64,000 nucleotides of DNA, from assembly GCF_003334385.1 (NCBI RefSeq), contig NZ_QOWN01000012.1; one strand, written 5' to 3'. Positions 18,465 to 61,780 of the stretch are shown here, in pieces. Every line of letters starts with the position of its first letter. The stretch's first letter is position 1. The notes beneath the pieces are model-generated. The model did no database searches. It was given only the letters and a program-made list of their open reading frames with translations, and had not been told where the DNA came from. This DNA comes from Escherichia coli. GTDB lineage: Bacteria > Pseudomonadota > Gammaproteobacteria > Enterobacterales > Enterobacteriaceae. The position numbers were made by a program, and so were the translations under genes.

Positions 18465-18645
18465 CTTTGTAGGCCTGATAAGACGCGCCAGCGTCGCATC
18501 AGGCATCGGAGCACAACTGCCGGATTCGGCGTGAACGCCTTATCCGATCTACGGGCCTCGTCCCTGTTGTGATAAAGGCATCAAATCCCAGACATGATAA
18601 GACGCGCCAGCGTCGCATCAGGCGATAAATGCCTGATGCGATAAA
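18465..18645. repeat. REP/BIME cluster (about four REP-like units)
   Basis: GATAAGACGCGCCAGCGTCGCATCAGGC occurs twice (18477.. and 18595..). Also present are TGCCGGATTCGGCGTGAACGCCTTATCCGATCTAC and GCCTGATGCGATAAAG. Confidence 0.85.
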
Positions 18646-29785: not shown

Positions 29786-30012
29786 TTCATTAATCATTCT
29801 GGCATGTCGCACTCTCGCATTTAATCGTTTTTATCTGGATAGCGCTCTTTTGATCGGCAATGTTGAAATAATGAAAGCGGCATAGATTGAGGGGCAATAA
29901 TTTGAACTCAGTCGCAAAATTATAATTAAAACGGTCATGCTACCTAATATATGCCCGTTTATTGCATCGCGAAATTTGAGAAGACATAACTCATTAAATG
30001 AAAGGGATGCAA

Positions 30013-45205: not shown

Positions 45206-45784
45206 CTAAATTTCAGTATACCTTTCCTTCGCTGTAATAAAGTCGTCCGGAGTATCAATATCTAAAATTATTTCTGCATTTTCTATTTCGACGGAATAAT
45301 GATCTCCCATAAGGAGTGCCTGACGCATATTGGTGACATTGGGTCGTTGGATTGCCTGCATCAGGCATGGTTTTGACACTAAAATCGGATGGCCGGGGAT
45401 GCCATTATGGAGTGGCAGTATTGCGCCATCATTTCGTAACGACCAGATTTTTCTAAAAATATCGATGGTGAGGGTTGGCATGTCACCGTGGGTGAGAAAA
45501 CAATGTTCTGTTTGCACTGCGGGTACTGCGGCCTTGACGGATGTTAGTAAACCCTGCGCATAATCTGGGTTGTGAATAATAGTGATATTGCTCTGGTTCG
45601 CATAACGTTCGTGCAGTTCATTACCACGATAGCCGGTGACTAAAATAATTCGGCTACAAAACTGCAACGCATTTTTGATACTTGTATCAAGAATTGTTCC
45701 CTGTTCCCAGGGTAACATCATTTTCCATTGCCCCATTCTTGATGATAATCCGGCAGCGGTAATTATACAGTCGATGGCTGACAT
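45206..45784 (-). CDS. mocA: molybdenum cofactor cytidylyltransferase MocA (192 aa)
   Basis: MSAIDCIITAAGLSSRMGQWKMMLPW, with the MobA-like NTP-transferase motif. Recognised as YgfJ. Confidence 0.92.
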   Translation of the reverse strand: MSAIDCIITAAGLSSRMGQWKMMLPWEQGTILDTSIKNALQFCSRIILVTGYRGNELHERYANQSNITIIHNPDYAQGLLTSVKAAVPAVQTEHCFLTHGDMPTLTIDIFRKIWSLRNDGAILPLHNGIPGHPILVSKPCLMQAIQRPNVTNMRQALLMGDHYSVEIENAEIILDIDTPDDFITAKERYTEI

Positions 45785-45886
45785 AGTGGTTCCATTATTT
45801 ATAGGGGCTAATAACGCCTGATAATTGCGTTACTTCCTGATGGATTAAGTTGGGGATAATTTATCCCAGAGAGGTCATAAAGACTC

Positions 45887-46657
45887 GTGAAAAGTATAGT
45901 TGACCCATCGGCATTAGTCATTGATTTAGGTGCGCAGAAACGTCCCACTGTGATTTCTGTTGTTGGTGCTGGGGGGAAAACCAGCTTGCTTTTTTGGCTG
46001 GCAGAACTGCTCCAGGCTAGCGGCAGGCGTGTGTTAATCACGACGACGACACATATGTTTATGCCAACGTCTCACTGGCCCGTGGTTTTCTGTCGTGATC
46101 CCGCCATGCTTCCTCATGCGTCTCTTACATCCCCCATTTCATTTTGTTTTCACAGTTGGAAAGCGAACCAGGGAAAAGTGCAGGGATTTACGCCAGAAGC
46201 GATTGATGCACTGGTGCAACGACCAGAGTGTGACGTAATTCTCATTGAAGCAGATGGCTCGCGTGGAATGCCGTTAAAAGCGCCTGATGAGCACGAACCT
46301 TGCATACCCAAAAGCAGTTGCTGCGTGATTGCTGTGATGGGAGGACATACTTTGGGCGCGAAAGTGAGCACAGAAAATGTCCATCGCTGGTCGCAGTTTG
46401 CTGATATTACCGGGTTAACACCTGATGCAACCTTGCAACTGAGCGATCTCGTTGCGCTGGTTCGCCACCCTCAGGGGGCGTTTAAAAACGTACCGCAAGG
46501 TTGTCGGCGAGTCTGGTTCATTAACCGTTTTTCTCAATGTGAGAATGCGATTGCACAAAGCGAGCTCCTTCAACCGCTGCAACAACACGACGTAGAGGCA
46601 ATCTGGCTGGGCGATATACAAGAACATCCTGCAATCGCGCGCAGATTTGTGAATTAG
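45887..46657 (+). CDS. yqeC: selenium-dependent Mo-hydroxylase accessory protein YqeC (256 aa)
   Basis: GTG start. P-loop-like VVGAGGKTS. Recognised. Confidence 0.88.
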   Translation: MKSIVDPSALVIDLGAQKRPTVISVVGAGGKTSLLFWLAELLQASGRRVLITTTTHMFMPTSHWPVVFCRDPAMLPHASLTSPISFCFHSWKANQGKVQGFTPEAIDALVQRPECDVILIEADGSRGMPLKAPDEHEPCIPKSSCCVIAVMGGHTLGAKVSTENVHRWSQFADITGLTPDATLQLSDLVALVRHPQGAFKNVPQGCRRVWFINRFSQCENAIAQSELLQPLQQHDVEAIWLGDIQEHPAIARRFVN

Positions 46658-46704
46658 CGGCCCGGGTATTCCGGGTTACTGAAAGGATATCCATTGAGGT
46701 TGGT

Positions 46705-48330
46705 ATGAATATTTTCACAGAGGCTGCAAAACTCGAAGAGCAAAATTGTCCGTTTGCTATGGCGCAAATTGTTGATAGCCGAGGCTCGACTCCCCGCCAT
46801 TCTGCACAAATGTTAGTGCGCGCCGATGGTTCTATCGTCGGTACAATTGGTGGCGGAATGGTTGAGCGGAAGGTGATTGAAGAGTCGCTTCAGGCATTGC
46901 AGGAACGTAAGCCGCGATTATTCCATGGACGTATGGCTCGTAACGGTGCGGATGCTGTCGGGTCAGATTGTGGAGGTGCAATGTCAGTATTTATCAGCGT
47001 CCATGGTATGCGTCCACGTCTGGTGTTGATTGGCGCGGGGCATGTCAACCGGGCGATAGCCCAGAGTGCGGCGCTATTAGGATTTGATATTGCCGTTGCT
47101 GATATTTATCGCGAAAGCCTCAATCCTGAACTATTCCCACCATCAACCACGCTTCTCCATGCTGAGTCGTTTGGTGCGGCAGTGGAAGCACTGGATATTC
47201 GCCCTGATAATTTTGTCCTGATTGCCACGAATAATCAGGATCGTGAAGCCCTCGACAAACTCATTGAACAGCCCATTGCATGGTTGGGGTTGCTGGCAAG
47301 TCGTCGCAAGGTTCAGCTTTTCCTGCGTCAATTGCGTGAGAAAGGCGTGGCTGAAGAACATATTGCCCGTTTACATGCGCCCGTTGGTTACAACATAGGT
47401 GCGGAAACGCCGCAGGAGATCGCCATCAGCGTGCTGGCAGAAATATTACAGGTGAAAAATAACGCGCCGGGTGGGCTGATGATGAAACCTTCTCATCCTT
47501 CCGGACACCAGCTGGTGGTGATTCGCGGTGCGGGAGATATCGCCAGTGGTGTGGCGCTACGTCTGTATCATGCGGGTTTTAAAGTGATCATGCTGGAAGT
47601 GGAAAAACCGACAGTGATTCGTTGTACCGTGGCGTTTGCCCAGGCCGTGTTCGATGGCGAAATGACGGTCGAAGGCGTCACTGCTCGCCTGGCAACCAGC
47701 TCTGCGGAAGCGATGAAACTTACCGAACGCGGATTCATTCCTGTGATGGTAGATCCCGCCTGTTCATTGCTTGATGAACTGAAACCGCTTTGCGTGGTGG
47801 ACGCTATTCTGGCGAAACAGAATTTGGGAACGCGGGCAGATATGGCACCAGTAACAATCGCGCTTGGGCCGGGCTTTACTGCTGGGAAGGATTGTCATGC
47901 GGTAATTGAAACAAATCGCGGGCACTGGCTCGGTCAGGTGATTTACTCTGGTTGTGCGCAGGAGAATACCGGTGTTCCTGGCAATATTATGGGGCATACC
48001 ACCCGACGGGTGATCCGTGCTCCTGCTGCAGGCATTATGCGATCCAACGTGAAATTAGGCGATCTGGTGAAAGAGGGCGATGTGATTGCCTGGATTGGTG
48101 AGCATGAAATTAAAGCACCGTTGACGGGGATGGTGCGTGGCTTGTTGAACGACGGCCTGGCAGTGGTTGGTGGTTTTAAAATTGGTGATATCGATCCTCG
48201 TGGTGAAACCGCTGATTTCACCAGCGTTTCTGATAAAGCCCGGGCGATTGGCGGCGGCGTACTTGAGGCGTTAATGATGTTGATGCATCAGGGCGTGAAA
48301 GCGACAAAAGAAGTGCTGGAAGTGGCTTAA
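46705..48330 (+). CDS. yqeB: XdhC/CoxI-like Mo-hydroxylase maturation protein YqeB (541 aa)
   Basis: 541-aa ORF MNIFTEAAKLEEQNCPFAMAQIVDSRGSTPRH (XdhC N-domain plus Rossmann domains). Recognised. Confidence 0.9.
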   Translation: MNIFTEAAKLEEQNCPFAMAQIVDSRGSTPRHSAQMLVRADGSIVGTIGGGMVERKVIEESLQALQERKPRLFHGRMARNGADAVGSDCGGAMSVFISVHGMRPRLVLIGAGHVNRAIAQSAALLGFDIAVADIYRESLNPELFPPSTTLLHAESFGAAVEALDIRPDNFVLIATNNQDREALDKLIEQPIAWLGLLASRRKVQLFLRQLREKGVAEEHIARLHAPVGYNIGAETPQEIAISVLAEILQVKNNAPGGLMMKPSHPSGHQLVVIRGAGDIASGVALRLYHAGFKVIMLEVEKPTVIRCTVAFAQAVFDGEMTVEGVTARLATSSAEAMKLTERGFIPVMVDPACSLLDELKPLCVVDAILAKQNLGTRADMAPVTIALGPGFTAGKDCHAVIETNRGHWLGQVIYSGCAQENTGVPGNIMGHTTRRVIRAPAAGIMRSNVKLGDLVKEGDVIAWIGEHEIKAPLTGMVRGLLNDGLAVVGGFKIGDIDPRGETADFTSVSDKARAIGGGVLEALMMLMHQGVKATKEVLEVA

Positions 48331-48338
48331 ATGAAAAT

Positions 48339-48364
48339 GGCCGGATGGTATTACCCACCCGGCC
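48339..48364. terminator. hairpin between convergent yqeB and yqeA
   Basis: GGCCGGATGG...CCCACCCGGCC, an imperfect stem. Confidence 0.55.
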
Positions 48365-48370
48365 TTTAAA

Positions 48371-56795: not shown

Positions 56796-57275
56796 TTACT
56801 TCGTTTTCTCGCAATCCAGAACTGTATTTACAATCATCTGATACCCCGTGCAGCGACAAAGATTTCCCGCCAGTCCGCGACGAATTTCCGTAATGGTTAA
56901 TGGCTTCTCGCGTGGTTTCGCCAGCATTGCCGTGGTAGCCATAATCAGGCCAGGCGTACAAAACCCGCACTGCACTGCGCCGGATTTCGCATAAGCCTGC
57001 TGAACATGAGAAAGTTTTCCGCCTTTCGCTTCACCTTCCAGCGTGCGGATCTCTTTTCCTTCAGCCCAGGCGGCAAGGTATAAGCAACTGTCTATTGCTG
57101 TGCCGTCGACCAACACCGTACAGGCACCACATTCACCCACGCAGCACCCTTGTTTGACACTTAGCAGTCCTTGTTCGCGGAGTAATTCCGAGAGCGGCGT
57201 GCCTGGTGCGGCGTGAAGCTGAAAAGGCATCCCGTTAATGGTGCATTCGATGGTAATTGTTTCGCTGTGATTCAT
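56796..57275 (-). CDS. xdhC: xanthine dehydrogenase Fe-S subunit (159 aa)
   Basis: Intact 2x[2Fe-2S] ligands: [12 protein letters not shown] and [14 protein letters not shown]. Confidence 0.95.
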
Positions 57276-58150
57276 TGCAATTTTCCCCCCGCCGCGGCGA
57301 CGGCTTCGCTAATCACTTTTTTGGTCATCGTCTGGATGAGATGCAGACGAAACTCTTTACTGGCCCGCCATGAAGAACGCGGGGCGACATCTTGCAGGAC
57401 AGATTCGCTGATAGCTTCCAGCGTTTGCAGGTTTAATGGCGCATTTTGTGCAGTCTGTTCGGCATGTTGGCAGCGAATCGGCGTTGGCGCGGCAACACCA
57501 AATGCCAGGCGTAATTCGCTGAAATTGCCGTTATCCAGTCGGCAATGTGCGGCGCAGCCAATCGTTGAAATATCCATTGCGTCGCGCATGGCATATTTAA
57601 AATGCGCGCTGCCCGCGTGTTCTTTCGGCTGTGGCGGAAAATGAAAGGCGACGAGGATTTCGTCATGCTCAAGAGACACTTTGCCCGGCCCGGTGTGAAA
57701 GCCATTAATCGGGACGAAACGAACACCGCGCGGGGAGTGGATCTCCAGTTTCGCGTCATAAATTAGCGTTGGCGTGGCAGAATCTGCGCTGGTGGCACCG
57801 TTGCAAATATTTCCACCGTAGGTAGCGACGTTACGGATCTGCGGTCCAGCAATGGACGTGGCCGCAGCACATAACGCCGGGAGATGACGTTGAGTTATAG
57901 GATCTTCTATTAGCTGGGTAAATGTCGTTGCAGAGCCGATACGTAGCGAGCCATCTTCCGCCAGCGTAATTCCCCGCAGCTCCGCCAGATTATGAATATC
58001 AACAATATGGCGATAACGGTCATTGTGATGGTGGAGCTGAATCAGTACGTCAGTGCCACCGGCGAGCAGTTTGGCCTGCGGGTTGTCAGCCAGCAGGTTG
58101 ATGGCATCGGCAAGGGTTGCTGCGCGATGGTAAGAAGCAAAATCAAACAT
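57272..58150 (-). CDS. xdhB: xanthine dehydrogenase FAD-binding subunit (292 aa)
   Basis: 292-aa ORF with [16 protein letters not shown] overlap with xdhC. Confidence 0.95.
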
Positions 58151-58160
58151 GATGTTATCC

Positions 58161-60419
58161 TCAAATCAATCCTGCCAGATGGAACTCTTCATATAACCGT
58201 TTTGGCGTCAGCGGCAGTGTATTGATTGCAACACCGGTAGCCATCTTCACCGCGTTACGAATAGCAGCGGCAACAGGAATTATTGGTGGCTCACCCAGTG
58301 ACTTATGTCCGTATGCGGATTGCGGCTCATTGATTTCGACGAACGCGCTTTCCAGTTGTGGCAGATCCGGCATGGTCGGCATTTTGTAATCCAGCAGATT
58401 GGGGTTACGGACCACGCCGCTTTTAGCATCGATGATCATCTCTTCAAATAGCGCCCAGCCAATGCCCATTCCCATTCCGCCGTGTACCTGACCTTCTGCC
58501 AGCAGTGGATTAAGAATATGCCCTGAATCATGAACGTTGAGGATGCGGTTGATGGTGACTTTGCACAGCGCAATATCGACCGTCAGATCAACAAAGGTAC
58601 AGCCAAACGCCGGTGGGTTAGTGGTGGTTTTGATGGAGCTTTCAGCAGAGAGCTGCCCGCCGCGTTCAGGGTGGTAGAAAGCGTCCATCGCCAAATCTTT
58701 TAACGACATTAACGGCTCTTCCGGTCGTTCAACCAGCACGATATGGCCTTTTATCAGGGTCAGATTCATCGCTGACTGATGTAGCATGACTGCGGCGTGA
58801 GCGATGATTTTCTCTTTTAATAATAGTGCCGCACTGCGCAGCGCAGGCGCGGCAACATAGCTCTGGCGTGAGGCAAATGCGCCGGGATCGAACGGCGTAA
58901 CGTCGGTATCTTGAGTTGAAATAACGCGAACGTCGCTGACCGGAACCCCCACGGTTTCTGCCACCATTTGCGAGAAGACGGTGTCGGCACCCTGACCGAT
59001 TTCCGTCGCGCCGCTTTGCACGTTGATGGTTCCATCCTGATTCATCAGAAGGCGCGCGCCTGCTATTTCTACGCCGACAGGCCAGGTGTTAGAGGTGTAG
59101 CTAAAACAGGCGACGCCAACGCCGCGGCGCAAATTGCCTTGCTGGTTCTGGCATTCTGCACGGCGTTTTTCCCATTCAAAGATTTTCCGGCCTTTTTCAA
59201 GACACTCCGGCAACCCTGCGCTGTAAATACGTTTGCCCGTGAGCGGATTAGCATCTCCTTCGCGGGCGGCGTTGCGTAAACGAATTTCAACAGGATCAAT
59301 ACCTAACGCTGTCGCGGCGTCATCAAGCATAGACTCAACGGCAAATACGACTTGTGGCGCGCCATAACCACGCATCGCACCAGCCGAGGGGAGGTTGGTA
59401 TAGCAGGTCTTTGAACTGTAAGCGTAGGCACAACGAGGATAAAGGTAAGCGACTTTATTCCCCCCCGCAGAAGCGATGGAGTGCCCGTGAGATGCATAAG
59501 CGCCGGTGTTAGACAGAACATCCAGACTATAACCTTTCAATGTTCCGTCGCGGTTCACGCCCATTTGCCCGTCAATGGTAAAAGCGTGGCGGGTACGGGT
59601 TGCGAGGAAACACTCTTCACGGCTAAGGGAAACTTTCACCGGAATGCCGCCAAGCTTGCTGGTCAGGAATGCCGCCATTGGCTCTTCCAGTACATCCTGT
59701 TTATTACCAAAACCGCCACCGACAAATGGTTTGATGACTCGTACGCATGACCAGGGAATATCCAGCGCCTGACCAACCACGCGGCGAACAATGTGCGGGA
59801 TCTGGGTGCTGGAAACGATGGTAATTCGCGAGTCATCCTCCATCCACGCCAGCGATGTTACGCTTTCCATGTGACAATGTTGAATAACGGGGGTCTGATA
59901 GTGCCCCTGTACCTGGTAGTCGGCGGCATCGATTGTTTGTTGGACATTACCCGTCGACATCGTGCTTTGTTTCAGTAAATTGCCACCGTTATGGATTGGT
60001 GCAGCGTCTTCTGCCAGCGCCGCTTCTGGCGTGGTGATAACGGGTAATTCTTGCCACTCAATGCTGACCAATTGCGCCGCTTTTTCTGCCGTGAGTTCAT
60101 CGCGGGCCACGACGATGGCAACGGCGTCACCATGATGACGAACATGGCGAGTTAGCAGTGCGCGATCGGCGGTATCGCGCTTGTTTTCGTCAAGTGTCCA
60201 GGCATGCCCAGCTGTAGCGAATGGAATATCAGGCACATCTTCCCAGGTAAAAATCGCCAGTACGCCCGGCAAACTTCTGGCTTGTTCATCATTAATACTT
60301 ACGGCATAACCATGTGCGATAGGGCTACGTACATATTTCGCATAACACATGCCCGCCATAACATAATCGTCAGTATATCGTGCCCGCCCGGTGACCTTAG
60401 CAATGGCATCGACGCGCAT
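58161..60419 (-). CDS. xdhA: xanthine dehydrogenase molybdenum-binding subunit (752 aa)
   Basis: ORF 58161..60458, recognised start MRVDAIAKVTGRARYTDDY. Motif GGGFGNK. Confidence 0.94.
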   Translation of the reverse strand: MRVDAIAKVTGRARYTDDYVMAGMCYAKYVRSPIAHGYAVSINDEQARSLPGVLAIFTWEDVPDIPFATAGHAWTLDENKRDTADRALLTRHVRHHGDAVAIVVARDELTAEKAAQLVSIEWQELPVITTPEAALAEDAAPIHNGGNLLKQSTMSTGNVQQTIDAADYQVQGHYQTPVIQHCHMESVTSLAWMEDDSRITIVSSTQIPHIVRRVVGQALDIPWSCVRVIKPFVGGGFGNKQDVLEEPMAAFLTSKLGGIPVKVSLSREECFLATRTRHAFTIDGQMGVNRDGTLKGYSLDVLSNTGAYASHGHSIASAGGNKVAYLYPRCAYAYSSKTCYTNLPSAGAMRGYGAPQVVFAVESMLDDAATALGIDPVEIRLRNAAREGDANPLTGKRIYSAGLPECLEKGRKIFEWEKRRAECQNQQGNLRRGVGVACFSYTSNTWPVGVEIAGARLLMNQDGTINVQSGATEIGQGADTVFSQMVAETVGVPVSDVRVISTQDTDVTPFDPGAFASRQSYVAAPALRSAALLLKEKIIAHAAVMLHQSAMNLTLIKGHIVLVERPEEPLMSLKDLAMDAFYHPERGGQLSAESSIKTTTNPPAFGCTFVDLTVDIALCKVTINRILNVHDSGHILNPLLAEGQVHGGMGMGIGWALFEEMIIDAKSGVVRNPNLLDYKMPTMPDLPQLESAFVEINEPQSAYGHKSLGEPPIIPVAAAIRNAVKMATGVAINTLPLTPKRLYEEFHLAGLI

Positions 60420-60513
60420 GCATGATTCACCCGTAGCGGTTGCTTCCCGCGCTTCCATAGAAATCCCCTCGATTTGAACATTTGGTTCTTATGGCAAAGA
60501 TTTAGTCTAAGCA

Positions 60514-60529
60514 GGCAAGATTTACGCCA
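60514..60529 (-). promoter_or_regulatory. candidate sigma54 (-24/-12) promoter for xdhABC
   Basis: Minus strand TGGCGT-AAATC-TTGCC, 95 nt upstream of the xdhA ATG. Confidence 0.5.
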
Positions 60530-60619
60530 GAAACGACGATAAGCGTTAGGGGAGGTAGGAAGTGTGATGACGTTAAAAAAACACAGATATGATACGAAAC
60601 AGGACTCTGAATAGGGGCA

Positions 60620-61706: not shown

Positions 61707-61780
61707 GCGGGCGTAGTTCAATGGTAGAACGAGAGCTTCCCAAGCTCTATACGAGGGTTCGATTCCCTTCGCCCGCTCCA
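61707..61780 (+). tRNA. glyU: tRNA-Gly (anticodon CCC)
   Basis: 74-nt sequence GCGGGCGTAGTTCAATGGTAGAACGAGAGCTTCCCAAGCTCTATACGAGGGTTCGATTCCCTTCGCCCGCTCCA. It folds as a cloverleaf by hand with anticodon loop TTCCCAA and an encoded CCA. Confidence 0.95.

Follow-up and report, generated by a model that had tools for sequence, protein, structure and literature searches.

Accessory genes for molybdenum cofactor maturation in Escherichia coli: the mocA-yqeC-yqeB locus and its probable client enzymes

The window analysed here, a whole stretch of 64,000 nucleotides of Escherichia coli DNA, carries at positions 45206-48330 a set of genes for maturation of the molybdenum (Mo) cofactor. The list of open reading frames (ORFs) in the window holds exactly three ORFs in this interval: mocA on the minus strand, and yqeC and yqeB on the plus strand. 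Its 3125 bases are 100% identical to K-12 MG1655-type chromosomes, and 5176 of the 5426 complete E. coli genomes contain them. RefSeq names the products 'molybdenum cofactor cytidylyltransferase' (MocA), 'selenium cofactor biosynthesis protein YqeC' and 'selenium-dependent molybdenum cofactor biosynthesis protein YqeB', and all three proteins score above the curated cut-offs of NCBIfam. A first-pass annotation, made from the letters of the window, had placed the three genes between two catabolic operons and had read them as a dedicated island for maturing a non-standard, probably selenium-containing Mo cofactor. The ORFs and the flanking operons are as it described them, and the gene identities agree with RefSeq, the NCBIfam scores and the literature. 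The interpretation is supported; as an account of a thoroughly annotated locus it is accurate, and it repeats a hypothesis that appeared in print in 2008 and has since entered the RefSeq product names. The features of the locus are as follows.

45206-45784, minus strand: mocA (ygfJ), CTP:molybdopterin cytidylyltransferase, which makes the molybdopterin cytosine dinucleotide (MCD) form of the Mo cofactor; 192 aa (ORF, RefSeq, TIGR03310, PF12804).
45785-45886, no strand assigned: divergent intergenic region between mocA and yqeC, 102 bp (sequence).
45887-46657, plus strand: yqeC, member of the YqeC family, a P-loop NTPase of the SIMIBI class; 256 aa, GTG start.
45959-45985, plus strand: codons for VVGAGGKTS, YqeC residues 25-33, the Walker A loop (translation).
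46705-48330, plus strand: yqeB, XdhC-like Mo cofactor chaperone fused to a YqeB-family domain; 541 aa (ORF, RefSeq, domain searches).
46738-47445, plus strand: XdhC-like module of YqeB, residues 12-247 (PF02625 and PF13478).
47515-48282, plus strand: domain specific to YqeB, residues 271-526, by which the 'selenium cofactor' trait is actually recognised (TIGR03309).

MocA scores 214.2 bits against TIGR03310, an equivalog model matched over the whole protein (cut-off 186.45), which places it in that family, and 99.5 bits against PF12804. It is 22% identical to E. coli MobA (E = 5e-9), the MobA equivalog models score far below their cut-offs on it, and its sequence predicts a MobA-like NTP-transferase fold in a protein homologous to but distinct from MobA. 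Neumann and colleagues are said to have found in 2009 that MocA supplies the MCD of PaoABC, an enzyme encoded elsewhere in E. coli. For K-12 MocA, to which the window protein is identical, CTP-specific MCD synthesis was reported (Neumann et al., 2009, as cited in PMC2997495), and PaoABC was likewise described as containing MCD (PMC2997495). Thus, the island is not as wholly dedicated as the first-pass annotation held. Outside E. coli, a Buttiauxella izardii locus (L005) is collinear with the E. coli cluster and has only ~350 bp between ygfK and yqeC (8092-8445) with no mocA match, so that mocA is apparently missing from this position.

YqeC reaches 240.9 bits against TIGR03172 (cut-off 73.05), which makes it a member of that family, and 144.2 against PF19842 (cut-off 27.6). 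The VVGAGGKTS motif pointed out in the first-pass annotation was confirmed by translation as residues 25-33. All of 148 aligned representatives have G27, G29, G30 and K31, and across 149 representatives conservation covers the Walker A residues G27, G29, G30, K31 and T32 (GAGGKTS, 27-33) and further T52-T55, K97, EADG 121-124, K131, E137-P138, R167, G197 and N213. With a Walker A loop and EADG as a Walker-B-like motif, YqeC has the hallmarks of a P-loop NTPase, and its fold is that of the SIMIBI class; a sequence search found no solved structure for it. A relay through a conserved Cys was considered and rejected, Cys139 (in HEPC) being invariant in 33 proteobacterial sequences but replaced by Val in 99 of the 149 representatives, among which YqeC has no other conserved Cys. 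YqeC as a MobB homologue was also rejected, since alignment of the YqeC profile with E. coli MobB by hhalign gave a probability of 4.3%, and MobB is kept solely as a functional analogy.

Domain fusions provide a view of what YqeC works with. In a family search in which 5804 clusters at 50% identity reached E <= 1e-3, fusions were counted in the best 150 representatives. YqeC is fused to a MocA-like nucleotidyltransferase in 15 of these, in both domain orders, and to YqeB in one (P0365, 541 aa), while well over 100 further YqeC-MocA fusion clusters were listed beyond the best 150. Four of the YqeC-MocA fusion genes were inspected in context, and each is directly preceded by genes for a xanthine-oxidase-family enzyme with its FAD, Fe-S and Mo subunits; two of the four also adjoin yqeB, and one of these two adjoins xdhC as well. 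In a Peptococcaceae locus (L086, 9513-11243), a YgfK-like protein, with 39% identity to E. coli YgfK over residues 1-428 of the latter, is encoded after XdhD-like and YqeC::MocA genes. Together with the P0365 fusion, this gene order suggests alternative packaging of the same pathway. The frequency of the MocA fusions (15 of 150) indicates that YqeC may serve MCD supply rather than selenium chemistry, and the genetics of Clostridioides difficile described below would also fit a place in the MCD branch. The 'selenium' label of YqeC is an inferred one, its basis being co-occurrence only (PMC2276186; PMC5029168).

YqeB is a composite protein. Both XdhC Pfam domains are present in its N-terminal half, PF02625 at residues 12-74 (70.7 bits) and PF13478 at residues 106-247 (118.7 bits), and this half matches the solved XdhC-like proteins 2we7 (E = 3.6e-27) and 3on5. 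Scores of 110.8 against the XdhC equivalog model TIGR02964 (cut-off 161.6) and 201.7 against the related model NF045664 (cut-off 350) fall short of the cut-offs, so the module is XdhC-like and not an XdhC equivalog. Residues 271-526 align with positions 1-256 of TIGR03309 at 417 bits (cut-off 220), placing YqeB in that family. The first-pass description of YqeB as a two-domain XdhC/CoxI-like protein thus holds for residues 12-247 only, residues 271-526 being a separate domain. That the C-terminal half is a duplicated XdhC Rossmann domain was rejected, with an hhalign probability of 3% and only a generic glycine loop aligning.

The YqeB domain combines a Rossmann-like part with a biotinyl-like barrel (a barrel-sandwich), and a sequence search found no solved structure for it. 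It is very widespread, outside E. coli usually as a free-standing protein of ~270 aa, and the E. coli domain is 52-63% identical to its counterparts in Moorella, Collinsella, spirochaetes and Chloroflexota. In Collinsella and in a Clostridia locus (L013), it and the XdhC module are encoded by separate genes. In fragment numbering, its invariant residues are a GxGD loop, D104, K109, N111, GPGF, D134, E140, R143, H145, N159, R173, R176, D233, D235, R237 and D248; adding 261 converts these to positions in full-length YqeB, where invariant residues include D277, D365, K370, N372, E401, R404, H406, D494, D496, R498 and D509. So many invariant charged or polar residues (Asp, Glu, Arg, Lys, Asn and His) suggest that the domain may bind a phosphorylated small molecule. 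No Cys is conserved among 39 sequences, which makes a persulfide or perselenide relay on YqeB unlikely. A swinging Lys of the biotin or lipoyl type in the barrel-sandwich half was likewise rejected, because the central hairpin, which reads GEHE in E. coli, is not conserved as judged from the aligned sequences and the strand prediction. One aligned sequence, P0007, a 'YqeB' from a Logan assembly, lowers the apparent invariance of YqeB; nearly all its differences from the E. coli protein are of the types P to F/S/L, A to V, T to I and H to Y, a pattern as from C-to-T conversion (bisulfite-treated or deaminated reads), and it is therefore an artefact rather than a natural variant.

These proteins have been tied to selenium by comparative genomics. 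YqeB, YqeC and YgfJ (MocA) were named accessory proteins of selenium-dependent molybdenum hydroxylases, with this E. coli region as the best-scoring neighbourhood (Haft and Self, 2008; PMC2276186). In the accompanying phylogenetic profiling, YqeC ranked first or second together with YqeB, xdhA sixth and ygfN (xdhD) fourteenth, and TIGR03309 was confined to selD-positive genomes (PMC2276186). A 'Se-cofactor trait', defined as SelD plus YqeB plus YqeC, was later assigned to 312 of ~5200 genomes (PMC5029168). In C. difficile, deletion of yqeB resembles selD mutants on xanthine and urate, whereas deletion of yqeC has no phenotype and a yqeB yqeC double mutant equals the yqeB mutant (PMC11448449). 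The link drawn in the first-pass annotation between YqeB/YqeC and SelD with labile-selenium molybdenum hydroxylases matches all three studies. Its remark that no mechanism of selenium insertion is known also agrees with the literature, in which we found no mechanistic work on YqeB or YqeC up to mid-2026. A paradigm is XdhC, on which the Mo cofactor is sulfurated while bound and from which it is then inserted (PMC2997495).

Conserved gene neighbourhoods show the same association. Of 80 recovered loci with a YqeB domain, counts were made on the 61 that extend 2.5 kb or more beyond yqeB in both directions. Within 2.5 kb of yqeB, yqeC occurs at 58 of the 61 loci and an XdhC module, either fused or encoded by the next gene, at 57. 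About three quarters of the 61 loci are from Collinsella, so the independent support amounts to about a dozen lineages, drawn from Enterobacterales, Vibrionaceae, Endozoicomonas and its relative Parendozoicomonas, Spirochaetes, Coriobacteriia, Clostridia, Chloroflexota and Denitrovibrio. Four-gene operons with overlapping ORFs were found in a member of the Chloroflexota (L015, 203-3167; yqeC-mocA-xdhC-yqeB) and in one of the Clostridia (L013, 8650-11872; yqeC-mocA-yqeB-xdhC). The four modules YqeC, MocA, XdhC and YqeB thus behave as one unit across phyla. In a gut member of the Clostridia (L042), one strand carries selD, a tusA-like gene and yqeB side by side, with a 4-base overlap between yqeB and the tusA-like gene, and yqeB is followed by genes for Mo cofactor biosynthesis, an ABC transporter (likely for molybdate) and a NifS-like protein, and then by yqeC and xdhC. 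At a further locus (L066) selD adjoins yqeB, and at three others (L033, L037 and L070) yqeB adjoins XdhA-type genes. The K-12 genome contains selD, in keeping with YqeB occurring together with SelD, and E. coli has YqeB, YqeC, SelD and a xanthine-oxidase-family enzyme together, the combination that accompanies selenium-dependent molybdenum hydroxylases.

In two records, most genes of the cluster match as fragments. The Arsenophonus endosymbiont of Aleurodicus floccissimus (L008, 2800-20750) has the whole xdhD-ygfK-mocA-yqeC-yqeB-yqeA-hyuA-ygeY-ygeX-ygeW cluster, most genes of which match as several shifted fragments, as expected of pseudogenes in a decaying endosymbiont genome. The E. coli strain ECGI0523 (L002, CP178306.1), a species-representative record, has 134 gaps in 10.9 kb relative to the window at 96.6% identity, with most of the cluster genes fragmented in tblastn, which suggests an assembly rich in indels and not true divergence.

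The enzymes that would receive the cofactor lie on both sides of the locus. To the left of mocA, the minus strand carries ygfK-ssnA-ygfM-xdhD-xanQ-guaD-ghxQ, and to the right of yqeB it carries ygeW-ygeX(dpaL)-ygeY-hyuA-yqeA(arcC), followed by ygeV and xdhABC. The two probable clients are listed here.

36758-40404, minus strand: xdhD and ygfM, urate to 2,8-dioxopurine reductase, probable client (TIGR03313, 2122.8 bits; TIGR03312, 489.7 bits).
56796-60458, minus strand: xdhC, xdhB and xdhA, xanthine dehydrogenase, second probable client (annotation; NF007426, 1486 bits).

With purified proteins and mutants, E. coli XdhD-YgfM was shown to convert urate to 2,8-dioxopurine, which YgfK reduces further (PMC12507026). 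In Clostridium sporogenes, the 2,8-dioxopurine dehydrogenase, which catalyses the XdhD reaction, is inactive if purified from a selD mutant, and the xanthine dehydrogenase of this organism also requires SelD (bioRxiv 10.1101/2025.04.24.650524). The first-pass choice of XdhD as the most economical target of YqeB and YqeC is backed by these data as a client, but not as the sole one. Considering the profiling rank of xdhA, the SelD requirement of the C. sporogenes xanthine dehydrogenase and the XdhA-type neighbours of yqeB at the three loci mentioned above, XdhABC is as likely a client as XdhD. No gene for an XdhC-type chaperone is co-transcribed with xdhABC (PMC2997495). RefSeq still labels YgfK (41786-44884) a 'putative selenate reductase subunit', and the NCBIfam models for XdhD and YgfM (36758-40404) are named 'Se_sel_red'; two papers of 2025 have XdhD-YgfM and YgfK acting on urate and 2,8-dioxopurine, which makes these 'selenate reductase' names outdated.

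The best overall explanation, to which we give a probability of roughly two in three (0.65), is that the three genes, with their four modules, supply and finish the Mo cofactor for the xanthine-oxidase-family enzymes of the neighbouring purine/urate cluster. MocA first adds CMP to Mo-molybdopterin to form MCD, as was shown elsewhere for the same protein (cited in PMC2997495). YqeC, as an NTPase that may work physically with MocA, would then gate the hand-over of MCD, a role suggested by the fusions, the fold and the dispensability in C. difficile, and it would not be a selenium carrier. The XdhC module of YqeB would bind MCD during the exchange of the terminal Mo ligand, by homology to Rhodobacter capsulatus XdhC. 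The YqeB domain would deliver or install selenium from the selenophosphate made by SelD, replacing the sulfido ligand, as co-occurrence, the adjacency of selD and clostridial genetics suggest. Finally, YqeB would insert the finished cofactor into apo-XdhD-YgfM, and probably into XdhABC too. The explanation is least secure in two places, the selenium step within E. coli and the part played by YqeC. A more far-reaching version can be put forward only tentatively, at less than even odds: K-12 would make a labile-selenium molybdoenzyme overlooked for decades (XdhD-YgfM, perhaps also XdhABC), YqeC would be the NTPase partner of MocA, and the Cys-free YqeB domain would be a new selenotransferase that uses selenophosphate on XdhC-bound MCD with no perselenide relay.

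Several points weigh against this explanation. As regards YqeC, only YqeB and YqeC together mark the trait and YqeC alone does not (PMC5029168), yqeB was not seen within 8 kb at two of the four YqeC-MocA fusion loci, and the likeness to MobB is an analogy drawn from the fusions and the fold class only. As regards YqeB, the ligand of its domain is a putative one, suggested by the invariant residues. As regards selenium, Haft and Self themselves remarked in 2008 that no labile-selenium enzyme had been observed in E. coli (PMC2276186), active E. coli XdhD-YgfM was purified without attention to selenium (PMC12507026), and we found no published test of the selenium content of E. coli XdhD or XdhABC or of their dependence on selD or yqeB.

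The points on selenium favour the strongest alternative, a maturation of the sulfur type only, which we nevertheless regard as unlikely. It would produce a standard sulfido-MCD, with YqeB as an XdhC-type chaperone for XdhABC and XdhD, sulfur from a cysteine desulfurase, and the YqeB domain and YqeC as stabilising or gating accessories that transfer no selenium. YqeB was indeed proposed by Leimkuehler's group as a chaperone common to XdhABC and XdhD (PMC2997495), and a conserved Cys that could carry a chalcogen is lacking in both YqeC and the YqeB domain. Moreover, no labile-selenium enzyme has been demonstrated in E. coli (PMC2276186), and active XdhD-YgfM was obtained in a study that does not mention added selenium (PMC12507026); however, trace selenium is present in rich media, so this activity is no argument against selenium. 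A purely accessory YqeB domain is also hard to reconcile with its 52-63% identity to distant phyla, which implies a strongly constrained specific function, with the confinement of TIGR03309 to selD-positive genomes (PMC2276186) and the operonic arrangement with selD in the gut Clostridia locus (L042), with the resemblance between loss of yqeB and loss of selD in C. difficile (PMC11448449), and with the SelD requirement of the clostridial enzyme for the XdhD reaction (bioRxiv 10.1101/2025.04.24.650524).

A less probable alternative, which we consider improbable overall, assigns the selenium step to YqeC, for instance as a kinase or NTPase activating selenium or the Mo centre, and leaves YqeB as a mere scaffold. 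The Walker A loop and the invariant K97, K131, E137 and R167 could form a phosphotransfer site, YqeC ranked first or second with YqeB in profiling (PMC2276186), and one YqeC-YqeB fusion exists, but MocA fusions are fifteen times commoner than YqeB fusions and occur in genes with no yqeB nearby. YqeC alone is, in addition, no marker of the trait (PMC5029168), and in C. difficile its deletion has no phenotype, the double mutant being equal to the yqeB mutant (PMC11448449). Lastly, a role in handling selenate or selenite, in which YgfK-YgfM-XdhD would be a selenate reductase, MocA, YqeC and YqeB its accessory proteins and selenium a substrate behind the SelD link, was the main alternative discussed by Haft and Self (PMC2276186) and is echoed in the RefSeq name of YgfK and the 'Se_sel_red' model names, but it is scarcely credible now, being largely refuted by the urate and 2,8-dioxopurine biochemistry of XdhD-YgfM and YgfK (PMC12507026; bioRxiv 10.1101/2025.04.24.650524), by homologues of the 'selenate reductase' subunits that do not track selD as YqeB does (PMC2276186) and by the occurrence of YqeB/YqeC in other phyla beside varied xanthine-oxidase-family enzymes without YgfK.

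The regulatory features of the locus and its neighbours are listed here; the sigma-54 sites are published ones.

46288-46304, plus strand: sigma-54 promoter inside yqeC, driving yqeB via a leader of ~400 nt; exact match to the published site TGAGCACGAACCTTGCA.
44957-44973, minus strand: sigma-54 promoter for ygfK-ssnA-ygfM-xdhD, located downstream of mocA in a gap of 321 bp; sequence exactly as in the published site GTGGTGCGATTGTTGCT (PMC4591121).
54593-54608: published sigma-54 site upstream of ygeW.
60514-60530: published sigma-54 site upstream of xdhA.
29950-29966: published sigma-54 site upstream of ygfT.
48339-48364, no strand assigned: GC-rich, terminator-like hairpin between the convergent yqeB and arcC genes, with a 10-bp stem (8 GC pairs) and then a T-rich tail on the minus strand.

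Mutation of the sigma-54 site in yqeC was shown to abolish sigma-54 binding and to lower yqeB mRNA, and YqeB protein became undetectable (Bonocora et al., PMC4591121). The gap between yqeC and yqeB itself is 47 bp. The published sites at yqeB, ygfK, ygeW, xdhA and ygfT make the sigma-54 dependence of yqeB a property that it has in common with the catabolic operons, and the enhancer-binding protein YgeV is encoded within the cluster; the site at 44957-44973 provides ygfK with a separate promoter downstream of mocA. Neither mocA nor yqeC has a reported sigma-54 site upstream (PMC4591121), and C. difficile shows the same asymmetry, with a SigL promoter before yqeB and none before yqeC (Johnstone and Self, PMC11448449). 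In the mocA-yqeC intergenic region (45785-45886), only consensus-level sigma-70-like matches were seen, on the plus strand at 45798-45825 and on the minus strand at 45921-45893, the latter with its -35 hexamer inside yqeC; such matches are not evidence of function.

As for RNA elements, the intergenic regions were checked for riboswitches and other known RNAs, and Rfam gave no match from 44.8 to 48.4 kb. Elsewhere in the window, gathering-level Rfam matches to SIB RNA, 6S RNA, naRNA4 and a tRNA lie at 3979-4129, 4778-4961, 18472-18549 and 61707-61777; the annotation of an MG1655-type record (L001) has a tRNA-Gly between actS and ygeQ, apparently at the position corresponding to the window tRNA. 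Between yqeB and arcC, the window has a single copy of a 27-bp hairpin sequence, GGCCGGATGGTATTACCCACCCGGCCT (48339-48366), whereas MG1655-type records (L001, 23134-23341) have two direct GGCCGGATGGTATTACCCACCCGGCCT copies around an insert resembling repetitive extragenic palindromic (REP) elements and are 180 bp longer in total. The REP-like insert is present in every listed record 100% identical to the window flanks, the insert-less records being at most 99.2% identical, and the combination found in the window (K-12-like flanks, no insert) was not seen among the records listed. The single GGCCGGATGGTATTACCCACCCGGCCT copy of the window looks like a deletion through recombination between the direct repeats.

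Of the three ways in which bacteria use selenium, its loading onto the Mo cofactor is understood least. The enzymes in question drive the degradation of purines and urate under anaerobic conditions in the gut, with a bearing on human urate levels and gout. Because a complete accessory set lies beside a biochemically defined client, E. coli K-12 is the most tractable organism in which to study the mechanism. Beyond the hypothesis of 2008, the present analysis contributes a four-module cassette, the tie between YqeC and MocA, the lack of a Cys relay, and an architecture for the YqeB domain that has no solved counterpart.

Among known systems, the closest is the accessory set of selenium-dependent molybdenum hydroxylases (Haft and Self, 2008, and Zhang et al., 2008), which comprises YqeB/EF2563 (TIGR03309), YqeC/EF2564 (TIGR03172) and YgfJ/MocA (TIGR03310). 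The E. coli genes are the type members after which the families are named, the neighbourhood is the same (xdhD, xdhABC, ssnA, ygfK, ygeW/X/Y and hyuA), and selD is present in the E. coli genome. The difference is that selD is unlinked to the locus in E. coli, whereas it is linked in E. faecalis and at the two loci mentioned above (L042 and L066), and that the presence of selenium in the E. coli enzymes is presumed. E. coli selD is not an 'orphan', since selenocysteine and selenouridine are used as well.

The second comparison is with R. capsulatus XdhC and its NifS4 cysteine desulfurase and with E. coli PaoD/PaoABC. YqeB shares with XdhC the two Pfam domains of its N-terminal half, and by analogy it would be expected to bind the Mo cofactor, allow exchange of the terminal chalcogen and insert the cofactor into the apoenzyme. 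YqeB differs in scoring below the XdhC equivalog cut-off, in not being co-transcribed with a client enzyme, in its extra domain of 270 residues, which XdhC and PaoD lack, and in its presumed donor, selenophosphate rather than a persulfide. In the eukaryotic Mo cofactor sulfurase ABA3/HMCS (NifS-like plus MOSC domains), modules that hold the cofactor and deliver the chalcogen are likewise combined in one polypeptide (PMC2997495); however, there is no relationship in fold, the absolutely conserved Cys of MOSC contrasts with none in the YqeB domain, and sulfur rather than selenium is delivered.

The third comparison concerns MobA, a guanylyltransferase, and MobB, a P-loop adaptor, which also occur as a bifunctional fusion. 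As in that pair, MocA, a MobA-family protein, is accompanied by a SIMIBI P-loop NTPase, the two genes being divergent in E. coli and fused elsewhere. MobB belongs to the SIMIBI class, and mobB is dispensable for synthesis of molybdopterin guanine dinucleotide; the NTPase YqeC is dispensable in the one organism tested, C. difficile. YqeC differs from MobB in length (256 versus 175 aa) and in having invariant motifs of its own (TTTT, EADG and HEP). Among the SIMIBI/G3E NTPases, which include UreG, HypB, CooC and MeaB, YqeC may be comparable in role to UreG, HypB and CooC, which act in the assembly of metal centres.

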